From positions 14,198,001-14,262,000 of the forward strand of contig OX597820.1 of NCBI GenBank assembly GCA_951406725.2: DNA of 64,000 nt, in the 5' to 3' direction. This stretch comes from Octopus vulgaris. Taxonomy: Eukaryota. The position numbers and the translations under genes are program-made. A model generated the notes under the pieces. It saw nothing but the letters and a program-made list of their open reading frames with translations, searched no databases and was not told where the DNA came from. This document shows, piece after piece, positions 21,484 to 57,390 of the stretch (position 1 is the stretch's first letter; each line of letters starts with the position of its first letter).

Positions 21484-21660
21484 CCCCAAATAAAAACGAA
21501 GAAGAAACGCAAAAAACAATGCGAGGATGTGGTACATGTAAAGTATTAACAGACGCTCAGGGAAGGAAAGAAAGGTAGTTTTACGTTTCGAGCAAAGCTC
21601 TTCTTCAGAAACAGGAGACAGAGGGGAAAAATCGCCAACAATTCACATGTGGTTACATTT
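21484..21660 (-). mobile_element. Short Penelope-like-derived element carrying a minimal hammerhead (21578-21612)
   Basis: GUUU-CUGAAGA-A-GAGC(UUU)GCUC-GAAA-CG-UA-AAAC. Same family as 42727-42930 (+) and a decayed copy at 51715-51830. Confidence 0.8.
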
Positions 21661-21936
21661 TGTGGCACTATGTCGGTTACGATGACGAGGGTTTCAGTTG
21701 ATCCAATCAACGGAACAGCCTGCTCATGAAATTAATGTGCAAACACAAATTTTAGGTGCCTTACTCAAAAACACTGTACAAAGCTAGTGTAAGATTTGAA
21801 CTTATGACTTGGTGGTTTGCCATACAGCTCCTTACCTCTCAACCATGGTATATTGGAAAAAATATAATGACTTTTCAATTAGAAAATTACTATTTGTAAA
21901 TCTCACAATGAGAGATATTCAGCAACAGTACTTTGT

Positions 21937-22191
21937 AGTAAAGATTGTTTGCCAACATAACATGGCAGTCCTGGTTTAGGACAAATTTAGCTCCAGGAAA
22001 CATTGTCTTCAGCTGGCTATACGACACGATCTGTGTCCTTATATTTTCAAACAAGGGAATCTAGCATCCCCACTCAGCTCAAAACAATATCTGTGTATCC
22101 CGATTTCTGAGTTATTTCTCTTCATCAGCACATTTAGCAACATTCGTTGTAAACCAGGACTGCCATGTTATGTTGGCAAATAATCTTGACT
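21937..22191. mobile_element. Foldback/MITE-like element with ~40-bp TIRs and an internal hammerhead (22092-22132, minus strand)
   Basis: TIRs aagattgtttgccaacataacatggcagtcctggttta / taaaccaggactgccatgttatgttggcaaataatctt. HHR: UGUG-CUGAUGA-AGAG(AAAUAA)CUCA-GAAA-UC(GG)GA-UA-CACA. Confidence 0.8.
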
Positions 22192-23062
22192 TTTCAGATG
22201 TTGTACGCCATCCAGTAACTGTATCTGATTGCTCATAAAATATACTTTTTTTACCAAAAAAAAAAAATCTCAAAAAATCTCCCCAGGTTTTCTAAGTGAA
22301 GTTGGGTCTCCCATAAAATTTAATGCATTAAGATCTTTTAACTTGAACATGCGTGGCCAACATCACAACAGAAAGCATGTGTGCTAGGGCCATGGAGATA
22401 GCTCCCGTACTGACACCACTTAAAGATCCCCTCCGCTGGTGCCATGTAAAAGAACACCTGTGCCAGTGCCACATGAAAGGGTACCCATGCTGGTGGCACA
22501 TAAAAAACACCCAATACACCCTGTAAAGTGGCTGGTCTTAGGAAGGGCATCAAGCCATAGAAAGCAAGCCAAAACAGATGACTGGGGCCTGGTGCAGCCC
22601 TCTTGTTTGCCAGCTCCTGTCAAACTGTCCAACCCATGCCAGCTTCGAAAATGGACGTTAAATCATGATGATGATGGTGGTGGTGGTGATGACGATGATG
22701 ATGATGATGATGATGGTAGTGGTGGTGGTGGTGGTGATGATGATGATGATGAAATCGAGGTGCATCTAATATGCCCCTGTGTCATTTATGCTACGGAAAT
22801 ACATCTTTTATACATTGCTTAATTCATTTCGGTAAAAGTAGGAATGGAATTAGCTTTGGGTTAAGACAGCCGCAATCTTTGGTTCTTCTGGCATTTGAAG
22901 ATGGACTACCTACCAGAACTTTCATGGGAAATTACAAATTTCTGTGAAATGCCAATTTTTGAATTGAACAAATGGAAGAATACCAACAAAAGCTTAGAAA
23001 CTCAATTTTAAAGAAATTTCTCTGCTATGTCCCTTTGCACACATGACCCAACTCTATCTGTC

Positions 23063-30980: not shown

Positions 30981-31016
<36 letters not shown>

Positions 31017-31063
31017 TTGCATGTGTTTGTGTGAGTGTGTATATGTGCGTGTTTGCGTGAGTA

Positions 31064-31325
31064 CGAATATGGCGTAGTGGTTAAGAGCGCGGGCTACTAA
31101 CCCCAAGATTCCGAGTTTGATTCCAGGTAGTGACCTGAATAGTAATGATGATGATGATGATGATAATAACAACAACAACAACATCGAAAAATACCTCAGA
31201 AATTAGAACCCAGGTTCGAAATTTCCCCAAGACACCTGATGAAGGCTGGAGGGTATATCAGCTGAAACATTGTGTTAACAACAAACAAGATGAGGACAAA
31301 TATCCATTAAATGTAAATAATGTGG
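31064..31325 (+). mobile_element. tRNA-headed SINE-like element with a 3' hammerhead (31231-31276)
   Basis: A-box tggcgtagtgg, B-box-like gagtttgattcc, internal (GAT/AAC)n, then GACAC-CUGAUGA-A-GGCUG(GAGGGUAUAU)CAGCU-GAAA-CA-UU-GUGUU and an (aatgtaaat)n tail. Confidence 0.8.
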
Positions 31326-31397
31326 AAATAATAAATTTCTAAATCTCTCAGAGAGATATAAGCAGTAGTGATACAACAAAATAGTTGTATGCTGTCA

Positions 31398-31834
31398 ACT
31401 TAATGTGACAGTCCCATGAAGGGAATAATACTACTGCTATTTAGCCCTAGGAAACAGCACCGCTTCCTGTTGGCCTTGATACATTCCCTGTGTCCTTATG
31501 TTTACAAGGAGGAAATAAGCACCTCCACCTAGAGAGATTTAGAAATGTATTATTTGTATTTTTGAAATCAGTGAATGTATTTCACAAGAATAATTATAAG
31601 TTTACAAGGCCTAGACAAGCATCTTCAGCTAGCATGCCATGCTACTCCAGACTGATGATGAGCAATGACTCAGAAACTAGTCTCTGGATGCAGGCTTAGC
31701 TGGGTGGGGGTGTTTATCTCCCCCTTGTAAACATAAGGAGACAGGAAATGTGTCAAGGCTGACAGGATGTGGTGCTGCTTCCTAGGGTTAAATAGCAGTA
31801 GTATTATTCCCTTCATGGGACTTTCACATTAAGT
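31398..31834. mobile_element. Foldback element with ~135-bp inverted arms
   Basis: 31398-31532 (acttaatgtgacagtcccatgaagggaataatactactgctattt...) is the imperfect reverse complement of 31700-31834. The arms are related to the 21937-22191 element. Confidence 0.88.
31646..31688 (+). ncRNA. Intact minimal type I hammerhead ribozyme motif
   Basis: UCCAGA-CUGAUGA-UGAG(CAAUGA)CUCA-GAAA-CUAG-UC-UCUGGA: 6-bp helix I, canonical core, 4-bp helix II, palindromic helix III (ACUAGU), GUC site with predicted cleavage after 31682. Confidence 0.85.
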
Positions 31835-31879
31835 AAATAATGTAAATAATTAGATAAATAGATGATGATACTAATGATA

Positions 31880-31915
<36 letters not shown>

Positions 31916-35794: not shown

Positions 35795-36627
35795 CATACA
35801 CACATATATATGGGTGTGTGTATGTTTGTGTGCCTGTTTTTGTCCCCACACACACACACACCATCGCTTGACAATCGATGTTGGTGTGTTCAAGTCCCCA
35901 TAATCCAGCGGTTCGGCAAAAGACACTGATAGAATAAGTACTAGGCTTACAAAGAGTAAGTCCTGGGGTCGATTTGTTCGACTAAAGGCAGTGCTCCAGC
36001 ATGGCTGCAGTCAAATGACTGAAAAGAATAAAAGAATATATATACATATATATATCATCGTCATCATCATTTAACATCCACTTTCCATGCTAGCATGGCT
36101 TGGACATATACACACACACACATATATATATATATACACACACACATATATATATATATATTCACATACATACTTATATATATTTAATATACTCATACGG
36201 ACACTCATACATTCCTTACCCCACCATTGAAGCACACCTGTGTGAAATCATTGTAACGGATGCAATTACATGGTTCCCTGCACACACTCACATGACAGAG
36301 ACTCTACCACACTTCCCTACAACCATCCATTGAGCACTTAATGTTCACACATGTAAAAACGCAGCACATAAAGCATCGTCAGGCCTTGCTAGGACCATGT
36401 GGCTCTAGGTTCAATCCTCTTCTGCAGCACCTTGGGCCAGTATCTTCTTCTGGTGCTTCAGGTCGTTAAATTAATAAATATGGCATCAAATAACTCTTCC
36501 AAAGTTTGTCATGTTTTAGGACTTGTAATTCTTGACCTGGTCAATGAAAGTATGTTTCTTGGGCTGCGTGAGGGAGTAAATGAACAATAAATGGCAGATA
36601 AAACAGTTCTATATTTAAGAGATGAGG

Positions 36628-36895
36628 AATTATTTACATTATTTACAGTATTTACATTTGATGGATATTTGTCCTCATCTTGTTTGTTGTTAACACAACA
36701 TTTCAGCTGACATACCCTCCAACCTTCATCAGGTGTCTTGGGGAAATTTCAAACCCGGGTTCTCATTCTTAAGGTATCTTTCGATGTTATTATTATTATT
36801 ATTATCATTATTATTATTATTATTATTATTATCATTATTATTATTGTTATTATCATTATTATTATTATTGTTCAGGTCACTGCTTGGAATTGAAC
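36628..36895 (-). mobile_element. 5'-truncated inverted copy of the tRNA-hammerhead SINE (HHR 36692-36737)
   Basis: Reverse complement of 36950-37235, beginning at the B box. HHR gacac-ctgatga-a-ggttg...cagct-gaaa-tgtt-gtgtt. Confidence 0.85.
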
Positions 36896-36901
36896 CCCCC
36901 A

Positions 36902-37017
36902 GGCATATGGCGTAGTGGTTAAGAGTGCGAGCTAATAACCCCAAGGTTCTGAATTCGATTCCAAGCAGTGACCCGAACAATAATAATAACAACAACAGCA
37001 GCAGCAGCAGCAGCAGC

Positions 37018-37051
<34 letters not shown>

Positions 37052-37059
37052 GCAACAGC

Positions 37060-37090
<31 letters not shown>

Positions 37091-37235
37091 TAGAAAAATA
37101 CCTTAGGAATGAGAACTCAGGTTTGAAATTTCCCCAAGACACCTGATGAAGGCTGGAGGGTATATCAGCTGAAATGTTGTGTTAACAACAAACAAGATGA
37201 GGACAAATATCCATCAAATGTAAATAATGTAAATA
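36902..37235 (+). mobile_element. tRNA-headed SINE-like element with a 3' hammerhead (37138-37183)
   Basis: tggcgtagtgg A box, gaattcgattcc B box, (AAT/AGC/AAC)n spacer, HHR, tail aatgtaaataatgtaaata. Confidence 0.85.
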
Positions 37236-37369
37236 GCATCAATAAAATGGCAGATATTTAGTGGAAGAATTTATTATTGCACATTAAAAACAAACTGTGT
37301 TGGCTTTTACAGTTAACAGCAGCAATAATTACGGACCGGGGAAGAGACACTACTCTGACGATGGTGGTG

Positions 37370-42726: not shown

Positions 42727-42930
42727 TTATGTGAATCGTTGGCGATTTTTTCCCCTCCATCTTCCTTTTCTATTGGACTTTCCTCTGTCTCCTGTTTCTG
42801 AAGAAGAGCTTTGCTTGAAATGTGAAACCACCTTTCTTTCCTTCCATGAGTGTCTTATTAATACTTTGCATGTACCACGTCCTCGCGTTGTTGTTTTTTT
42901 GTTTGTTCTTAGTTTTTTTTTATTTACTAA
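42727..42930 (+). mobile_element. Copy of the 21484-21660 hammerhead element (HHR 42794-42828, decayed)
   Basis: gttt-ctgaaga-a-gagctttgctt-gaaa-tgtg-aaac. CpG-type changes and a GUG site predict inactivity. Ends in (TA)n. Confidence 0.75.
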
Positions 42931-54197: not shown

Positions 54198-56080
54198 TTT
54201 CAATCCTGTTTCCATTTCTTTCCGAGTGTCTTCCTGACACCTAGAGCAGAGAAACTCACTGTAAACATTGCTAGGCCATTGAAATGGACATACCAGATTG
54301 TTCATGTACAAAGTCATGTGATAGGGCAAAAGGAAAAAAATTAAAAATTAAAATAGTAAACAAAAAAAATGAAGGGGAAAAAGAGAGAGAAAATTCACAG
54401 CAACAATGCTCTTCTCAATATGTGTGACGTACCAGTTAAGGCAATCTTTTGCACTTCCTGCATGGGTGGTAAGCCAGAAATCATTCTTAAATAATTCTCA
54501 GTTCCTTTTTTGATCATTCCAAGTGCTCCTACAATCACTGGTATTGTAACAGTCTTGAGATGCCACATCTTTTTGATTTCAAATAGCAAATCTTTATACT
54601 TTCTGAGCTTACCAAATTCTTTTGCTGAGAAATTATGGTCATAGAGTATGCTCATATCAATCAACAAACAGACTTCACTGTTTTGGTCTTTCACAACAAT
54701 ATCTGGTTTGTTTGCTTTGATGGTCTGGTCTGTACATACTGCGAAGTCCCAAAGAATAGTTACATTTTCTCCTTCAGTTACAGCCTCAGGGTAGTGCTTG
54801 TACCATTTGTCAGCAGTTTTGATTTTATAATGTCGATACATTATCCAGTGTAGATATTGGCCAACTCTGTCATGTCTTGATTTATTATACTCTACAAGTG
54901 CTAATACCTTACACCCAGAGATTAGGTGGTCCACTGTTTCTATCCCATTGTTGCTGTATCAGGACTCTGAGTCTACACCATTTTTCGTCACATTGGCTTG
55001 ATAGGTCAATAAGCTCTGATCTTGAGCAGCTACTCTCTGCCTTTAACCCTGAGCTCCATAGCCACTGATGGGTGTACTTCTGGTCTACATCAGATTGTTT
55101 GCTACAGCCCACATATTTGTTATGCGGAGGTTTTTGTTCCCATCTGTCAGACAATTGTTCAAATACATTTTGCTTTGCTATTGATTTAACCTTCTTTGCA
55201 ACCACAGTTGCTGCACTTCCATCATGCTGTTCAACCTGGGTATCATGCATAAGCTCTCCTTCATAACAGAATGTAGCTTCTTACATCTTTCATGGTTTTC
55301 AATGAACCTCAACATTCATTCATTAAATGTTTCAAGATATTTTGCCAATCCAATTGTGGTGGTTTTGTAGGAGATTTCAAATTGGATCAAGCTTCGAACT
55401 CCTTGAGCTCTGGGTAGGTAAAAACGACCTGTGTCTGCCTTTGGATGGTGCATCTTATTAAAAATCAGAAGCTTATGGATTTTCTTGTCAATCTTTCATA
55501 TTTCGCTCATATTCCAGTTCAACACATTGAAACTGTAAATAACAGCCAGAACTGCTAAGGAATTTATAGATAACATCTTGTTACTTGCATTTAACTCAGA
55601 TTTTAGGACTGCCTGAACTCTCCTGTAACACACCTTCCCGATCTTCTCTTTCATACTTGCATGCTGAGTGCCAGAGCCCTCATTTATTCTAAGGTCTTTG
55701 TAAGTTTGTTACTGCTCGAGTTCTTTTATGACTGTGTCAACATCCAGCTCCACTGAATGTGAGGTGTTCAGTTTCCCTTTCTAGAAAGTGGCCTTGGCAT
55801 TTTTATCAAGACCAAATTTCATCACAATGTCATCACTGAATGCTTTCACAGTACATAGTAGTCCCTCAAGCTCATTATGATCTTTGTCATAGAGCTTTAA
55901 GTCATCCATATAAAAGAGATGCCTCATTTTTTGTCACCAATTTTATATCCATACCCTGTTCTGTTAAGTTAACTTGTAAGGGGTATTAGGACTATGCAGA
56001 GAATTAAAGGTGAAAGTGAGTCACCTTGGAAAATGCTGCAGTTGATATTTATATTTTTTGTGGTCAGTACTCCATTAGAG
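54198..56080 (-). mobile_element. Decayed 5'-truncated R4/Dong-clade retrotransposon: reverse transcriptase, CCHC and RLE endonuclease
   Basis: IFQGDSLSPL (about 56030), LFYMDDLKLY (about 55910), and ORF 54395-54934 HLISGC..RHDRVG..ILWD..ANKPDIVV..LLIDMS..KY.DL..PVIVGALG..QKIALTGTSHILR. Frameshifted, with (TAA)-like repeats at both ends. Confidence 0.93.
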
Positions 56081-57124: not shown

Positions 57125-57390
57125 TTGGATAATATATCGGCATTATAAAATCAAAACTGCTGACAAATGGTACAAGCACCACCCTGAGGCTGTAACTGAA
57201 GGAGAAAATATAACTATTCTTTGGGACTTCACAGTAAGTACAGATCAGACCATCAAAGCAAATAAAGCAGACATTGTTGTGAAAGACCAAAACAATAAAG
57301 TCTGTTTATTAATTGACATGAGCATTCTCTGTGACCATAATATTTTGGCAAAAGAATTTGGTAAGCTCAGAAAATATAAAGATTTGCTAA
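57125..57390 (+). mobile_element. Internal fragment of the same R4/Dong element, inverted
   Basis: Near-identical reverse complement of about 54587-54848 (KTADKWYKH.PEAVTEGEN.TILWDF...KEFGKLRKYKDLL). Confidence 0.9.

Follow-up and report, generated by a model that had tools for sequence, protein, structure and literature searches.

Non-LTR retrozymes of mussels are 350-390-bp repeats for which circular RNA and cleavage have been demonstrated (Cervera and de la Pena 2020, PMC7229834), and a link between retrozymes and Penelope-like elements (PLEs) was argued from their co-occurrence and from the similarity of retrozymes to pLTRs, the terminal repeats of PLEs (Li, Clavereau and Pollet 2026, 10.64898/2026.07.22.740005). 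PLE insertions are described as partial tandems that are truncated on the 5' side, often carrying in addition an inverted copy, likewise 5'-truncated, and a tail of 30-40 bp on one side (Craig et al. 2021, PMC8557442). A PLE protein is reported to nick both strands of AT-rich DNA and to begin reverse transcription at two sites within the RNA, the distance between them corresponding to the tail, insertion proceeding in that account without a requirement for hammerhead cleavage (Frangieh et al. 2024, PMC11167929). Among cephalopods, 235 Rfam hammerhead matches are given in a squid genome paper (PMC6962438).

The locus described here lies in a stretch of 64,000 nucleotides of Octopus vulgaris DNA (the window) and very probably represents a non-LTR retrozyme of 351 bp, as predicted from its sequence, that was inserted by a PLE enzyme and whose inverted arms are a by-product of that insertion. 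It is one decayed insertion of an abundant, protein-free 351-bp repeat and not a MITE. The original prediction had delimited an element at 31398..31834 with inverted arms of about 135 bp. The arms are real (31398-31532 pairs with 31700-31834 at 120/135 positions), and the 521-nt region around the copy folds with a z-score of -22 against 100 shuffles; the left edge, in contrast, had to be moved 73 bp outwards, to about 31325. Mapping of 30 loci showed that the 73 bp to the left of the left arm are part of the element and have no partner on the right side, and that other copies extend beyond the right arm, first with the reverse complement of these 73 bp and then back into the beginning of the central part. 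The monomer is circularly permuted, and the copy at about 31325-31834 consists of an inverted 5'-truncated piece followed by a forward piece. The features of this copy and its host site are as follows.

31060..31323, plus strand: SINE-like repeat forming the host site, a separate element whose head is tRNA-like and whose tail is itself hammerhead-like (core 31236)
31313..31323, plus strand: left copy of the probable target-site duplication GTAAATAATGT, inside the tail of the neighbouring SINE
31325..31532, minus strand: family A inverted 5'-truncated piece, monomer positions 18 to 225 counted from the ribozyme cut, its outer end being the '228' end
31532..31834, plus strand: family A forward piece, from monomer position 201 through 351/1 to 152
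31646..31688, plus strand: minimal type I hammerhead motif of family A, the sole one in this insertion, with its predicted cut at 31682/31683
31833..31843, plus strand: right copy of the probable target-site duplication GTAAATAATGT, its first two bases common with the element end

The inverted piece thus comprises the left arm (31398-31532) and the 73 unpaired bases, and the forward piece ends at position 152, 22 nt short of the usual '174' end. The putative target-site duplication is 11 bp long and is regarded as probable only, because the SINE tail naturally repeats the same unit. No stop-free frame of at least 120 aa overlaps 31325-31834, and the reverse transcriptase (RT) plus GIY-YIG frame of an autonomous PLE is absent from the copy.

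The hammerhead, called by hand, stands as it was originally described. It reads UCCAGA-CUGAUGA-U-GAG-caauga-CUC-A-GAAA-CUAG-UC-UCUGGA, with helix I formed by UCCAGA (31646-51) and UCUGGA (31683-88), CUGAUGA at 31652-58, stem II GAG/CUC, GAAA at 31673-76 and the palindrome CUAG at 31677-80. Rfam scans of the whole window and of 31000-31900 gave no hammerhead match for this motif or for that of its relative near 22 kb, and for the family A copy none even at E <= 10. With its single hammerhead, the copy would not release a monomer alone. Among motif-spanning segments of the three families introduced below, the core is intact in 53/56 of A, 25/31 of B and 15/21 of C; a strict structure filter was passed by 39/56, 2/31 and 5/21 motifs, respectively, and stem II is mismatched in most family B copies. 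Two copies of each family's motif are predicted to cofold into a dimeric hammerhead with an extended helix III, a form proposed for the minimal hammerheads of PLEs (Cervera and de la Pena 2014, PMC4209133). With the PLE motifs described in the latter paper, those of octopus share the extra nucleotide after CUGANGA, the G10.1-C11.1 pair and the helix III palindrome; compared with the schistosome minimal hammerheads reported there, whose stem II has 7-8 bp, they have a stem II of only 3 bp and an extra A before GAAA.

A genome search with 31320-31860 returned 3668 first-look candidates, of which 40 were scored, a figure that is not to be read as a copy number. Self-comparison of individual loci (L047, L072) revealed direct repeats with a period of 350-352 bp in family A (up to 2.6 units) and 353 bp in family B (up to 2.2 units). 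Short non-coding monomers arranged head to tail, as expected of non-LTR retrozymes (about 150-400 bp), are therefore present, with periods of 351, 353 and about 355 bp. The insertions were analysed in 78 distinct copies (48 A and 30 B), which are the top matches of each search rather than a random sample, two of the queries favouring inverted copies. An independent family A set of 21 new loci, likewise made up of top matches, was collected with a query devoid of the ribozyme and of the 228 end. Two loci with internal deletions (L049, L078) were excluded from the family A alignment (A1). The forward piece is longer than one monomer in 29/48 A and 14/30 B copies. Four loci (L173, L174, L184 and L185; G000:C14, C21) carry the same family A insertion with the same flanks, indicating that it was multiplied afterwards as part of a larger duplication or repeat.

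The termini and target-site duplications, whose determination had been proposed as a check, turned out to comprise two fixed 3' points and duplications of variable length. Forward 3' ends fall at positions 166-178 or 222-240 in 71/78 copies, around fixed points some 174 and 228 nt past the ribozyme cut and 54 nt apart. An inverted piece, 22-382 bp long, is present in 51/78 copies and absent from 27; with a query free of arm sequence, it was found in 16 of 29 copies and not in the other 13. Arm length and breakpoint vary from copy to copy, no two being alike. Both ends could be classified in 33 of the 51 inverted copies: 31 use opposite points, two use 174 twice and none uses 228 twice. The 21-locus set gave a similar picture: the forward piece ends within 220-236 at 18 loci, and the outer end falls within 168-177 in 9/12 inverted pieces; in family C forward ends lie at the homologous point (about 218-227) while inverted pieces end at 171-177 in 3/4. 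Non-simple junction repeats of at least 7 bp flank 25/78 copies, compared with 1.05% of 2000 swapped-flank controls; duplications measure 7-15 bp, besides one 19-bp microsatellite match, and many other copies sit in TA repeats where a duplication is unreadable. Variable 5' truncation, fixed 3' ends, an inverted truncated copy, a one-sided tail and a duplication of variable length, all to be expected of insertions mobilised by a PLE, were thus found together.

The original prediction had also pointed to a diverged relative at 21937-22191 with shared arm motifs and a hammerhead at the homologous position and orientation. This element belongs to family B:

21868..21877, plus strand: target-site duplication TGACTTTTCA, second copy at 22187-22196
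21879..22132, minus strand: family B forward piece (353-bp monomer), which starts at position 317, crosses the cut and stops at the '228' end
22092..22132, minus strand: family B hammerhead motif, AUA triplet, predicted cut at 22096/22095
22136..22191, plus strand: family B inverted piece of 56 bp, positions 115-170, its outer end at the '174' end

The TGACTTTTCA duplication was missed by the junction-repeat script and found by hand. The hammerhead (UGUG-CUGAUGA-A-GAG..CUC-A-GAAA-UCGGGA-UA-CACA) is placed as stated, on the minus strand from 22132 to 22092, and sits alike relative to the homologous sequence. The inverted arms exist, but cover 56 bp only (21937-21992 and 22136-22191, 49/56 matching), and most of the listed motifs lie in the single forward piece rather than in arms. 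Likewise, helices I and III are replaced yet still pair and CUGAUGA and GAAA are kept, as had been noted, but the retained GAG/CUC is atypical of family B, in which GAG/CCC or GGG/CCY is commoner.

Three sister families were distinguished, with units of 351 bp (A), 353 bp (B) and about 354-355 bp (C), the last of which was first met beside a PLE (L127:5110-5375), yielded 2395 first-look candidates and mostly ends in TA repeats. Pairwise identity between the families is 55-59%, and 142/362 columns are identical in all three. All three families have identical bases at the 11 core positions of the hammerhead, an agreement with a chance probability of about 3e-5 given a three-way identity of 39%. 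The inner pairs of helix I, by contrast, are CAGA/UCUG in A, UGUG/CACA in B and CACG/CGUG in C, and each family has its own helix III palindrome (CUAG, UCGCGA and CUCGAG, respectively). The proposal of an RNA-mediated element whose hammerhead is kept across lineages is borne out by this pattern of an identical core and of helices I and III that are replaced but pair. Families A-C are likely to constitute a new clade of non-LTR retrozymes, likely mobilised by a PLE.

The insertion pattern of the octopus copies is the published PLE pattern, and it is shown as well by a coding PLE of the same genome. A GIY-YIG scan of the genome gave 6136 candidates, 150 of which were scored, and recovered elements with RT and GIY-YIG in one ORF. 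One of these (L127:1290-4483) carries a 100% identical inverted piece of 766 bp, has about 29 bp of tail restricted to that side and is flanked by TA repeats; its hammerhead-like motif has the same layout, with the core CCGAAGA, compared with CUGAAGA in another locus (L125). No partner PLE with the terminal sequence of A, B or C was found among 46 GIY-YIG loci (30 loci and 16 longer stretches; 150/6136 candidates scored), the sole related sequence at these loci being the separate family C copy 1.3 kb past the ORF of L127. The same scan brought up a young PLE family with an intact 781-aa RT plus GIY-YIG frame at many loci (for example, L121:1664-4006 and L122:1745-4087), the 3' region of which has a variant hammerhead-like core, UUGAUAA. 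With the PLEs described in PMC8557442, PMC11167929 and PMC4209133, the octopus families share 5' truncation, partial tandems, the inverted 5'-truncated copy and the one-end tail, as well as two internal RT start points downstream of the hammerhead and insertion at AT-rich and TA-repeat sites. They differ from the endonuclease-positive PLEs in these papers in having no ORF and a tail of 54 bp rather than 30-40 bp, and from the PLE termini sampled in this genome in sequence.

The monomers themselves are strongly self-paired, as expected of retrozymes (fold z-scores of -8.0, -6.8 and -7.3 in the three families, against 40 shuffles each), and each is predicted to form a rod of 42-49 pairs that continues helix I and a branched head, with the 174 end falling in or beside a small hairpin loop of this head in all three families. 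In an alignment of 28 copies, both partners have changed in 10/28 pairs of the head region, and 95.6% of cells are paired; covariation exceeded all 500 shuffles in three of five measures and not in the other two, and is to be read with the provision that the structure was derived from the same alignment and from three related lineages. RNAalifold, run on these 28 copies, misaligned the hammerhead, since helix III is 4 nt long in A but 6 nt in the other two families; of its 40 pairs, 12 (the hammerhead region, one long-range helix and a hairpin within the rod strand) were removed ahead of the shuffle test. As for the earlier picture of a transcript folding into a long rod with a self-cleaving loop, the 135-bp rod stems from the insertion, and the conserved RNA structure lies inside the monomer.

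Of the claim that the ribozyme is under selection, the part that concerns source lineages holds, with a core kept among them, whereas selection after insertion found no support. An origin identical to the one favoured here, combined with host selection on the ribozyme or foldback RNA of inserted copies, would account for the rarity of core changes in the first family A set (2/631 bases) and for the 8/232 core versus 688/9905 other differences seen within insertions (p = 0.035). That set was, however, found with ribozyme-containing queries, and in sets collected with ribozyme-free queries private core changes match expectation (A, 2 observed versus 4.4 expected, p = 0.19; C, 6 versus 6.0), with 3 versus 6.5 in family B (p = 0.11). 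An apparently strong protection of the core in family A (p = 0.006) weakened after correction for subfamily variants, repeated loci and query bias. Because private core mutations occur at about the background rate in the sets collected with ribozyme-free queries, core conservation belongs to the source lineages and not clearly to inserted copies, and we consider host selection very unlikely. Still harder to credit is a DNA-transposon origin, in which a MITE or foldback element would carry terminal inverted repeats around a central hammerhead. MITEs and foldback DNA transposons are, like the octopus families, short, non-coding and of high copy number, and the hairpin shape is also that of many octopus copies; the 135-bp arms of the family A copy are complementary at 89%, and a second armed element lies in the same window. 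Yet neither the same terminal inverted repeat at both ends nor a duplication of fixed length was found: arms range over 22-382 bp, the inverted piece is missing from 27/78 copies (13/29 with the arm-free query), the two termini are different points of a tandem, circularly permuted unit, duplications vary between 7 and 15 bp, and copies occur in head-to-tail arrays. The MITE architecture of the original prediction is therefore given up.

More credible, and nonetheless improbable in our view, is the explanation that the repeats are pLTR stubs, terminal repeats cut off from a long coding PLE that is lost or unsampled, and that they never moved as independent small RNAs. PLE insertions are reported to be heavily 5'-truncated and often inverted (PMC8557442), the footprint is identical, and Xenopus retrozymes are described as resembling pLTRs (10.64898/2026.07.22.740005). 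Copies longer than one unit, however, run back into the same 351-354-bp unit and not into coding sequence (43/78 forward pieces exceed a monomer), and the sequences flanking the hammerhead are predicted to pair into a rod of 42-49 pairs in three families, as expected of a self-contained small RNA. Mobilisation of a retrozyme by a PLE enzyme, the reading that we favour, has to accommodate a 54-bp tail longer than the 30-40 bp reported, the forward end of the window copy off the usual point (152), and the lack of a terminal-sequence match to A, B or C in the 46 GIY-YIG loci drawn from 150 of 6136 scored candidates, besides the separate family C copy. It also has to accommodate the imperfect stem II of most B copies, the few B (2/31) and C (5/21) motifs passing the strict filter, a motif unrecognised by Rfam, and the poor in vitro cleavage reported for minimal hammerheads (PMC4209133), eight of nine Xenopus dimers being described as uncleaved (10.64898/2026.07.22.740005).

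As for the template, 12 forward pieces of the 21-locus set pass through the cut site, nine stop at positions 18-72 and none stops at the cut, which points to a circle or an uncut multimer. A linear self-cleaved monomer was rejected as template, there being no pile-up of 5' ends at the cut, as was L1-type twin priming on one linear monomer, in that the forward 5' end does not abut the inverted start point and the pieces often overlap in positions. The two pieces of one insertion often cover the same positions and have non-consensus variants in common more frequently than separate copies do (A, 100/298 versus 39 expected; B, 31/207 versus 19; C, 16/59 versus 4). Either a circle or an uncut multimer fits copies as old as these, most of them differing by 3-12% from the family majority sequence. 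Contigs of four sequencing runs guessed to be RNA cover 26-30 of the 30 bins of one monomer, a coverage given no weight here, contigs being devoid of information on strand, ends or circles and the comparison having no silent control.

Insertion by a PLE enzyme might proceed as follows. A tandem source locus would be transcribed, two hammerheads would dimerise by way of the palindromic helix III and excise monomers, and these would possibly be ligated into circles. The RT/GIY-YIG protein of a PLE would bind the branched part of the RNA, 60-230 nt beyond the cut, and open the DNA in a staggered break, each end of which would prime reverse transcription inside the RNA, one at 174 and the other at 228. 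Both cDNAs would extend toward the 5' side of the RNA, through the ribozyme site if long enough, and stop at variable points; their joining would leave an inverted piece next to a forward one, and a tail at just one of the two ends. A bolder version, which we put forward tentatively and rate somewhat below even chances, is that the one RNA architecture kept by three long-separated families is a two-port loading site, on which a dimeric Penelope enzyme primes one strand at the 174 loop and the other 54 nt further on (228), on the same circular RNA. If so, retrozyme circles would be copied from both ends of a break at once, the inversions and tails of PLEs would be explained generally, and a 350-nt minimal test substrate would be at hand.

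Set against the metazoan non-LTR retrozymes described in PMC7229834 and 10.64898/2026.07.22.740005, the octopus families have in common a monomer that is non-coding, measures about 350 bp and contains one type I hammerhead, as well as head-to-tail copies, a strongly self-paired fold and a short palindromic helix III. They differ in that most of the octopus copies sampled occur as scattered insertions one to two units long, which have inverted pieces and end at two fixed points; in the main text of the same two papers, 'inverted' and 'tail' are not applied to retrozymes. The octopus families are known from sequence and predicted folds, whereas circular RNA and cleavage data are reported for the mussel retrozymes (PMC7229834). 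We found no description of cephalopod retrozymes or of their inverted insertions in a literature search whose scope excluded subscription papers and repeat databases, and families A-C may be catalogued already. The architecture had been thought undescribed, but inverted 5'-truncated copies with a one-end tail are already published for PLEs (PMC8557442); with both the element class and the inverted insertion shape in print, the foldback itself is no surprise. What the octopus families add is the PLE footprint at single-base scale, compared with the earlier argument from co-occurrence and pLTR similarity, together with a near-strict rule that one end of an insertion starts from one point and the other end from the other (31/33), at the same positions in families only 55-59% identical. 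They supply exact predictions for an in vitro priming assay, and a warning that such repeats can be misfiled as MITEs.

The window contains other repeats with related features, a repeat finder run over its whole length having given output dominated by microsatellites. Further copies of the SINE-like repeat, for which the A and B boxes of the tRNA-like head were read by eye and 1570 first-look candidates were obtained, lie at 36620-36870 (minus strand) and 36906-37240 (plus strand) in an inverted arrangement, with hammerhead-like cores at 36732 and 37143. Another repeat with a hammerhead-like core (CUGAAGA-A-GAG..CUC-GAAA-CG) has two copies, at 21572-21608 and 42798-42834. Finally, broken reading frames at 54395-55280 (minus strand), which we take to resemble the C-terminal part, with zinc knuckle and endonuclease, of a non-LTR retrotransposon, are found between inverted arms at 54584-54847 and 57126-57389, in a partly inverted arrangement.
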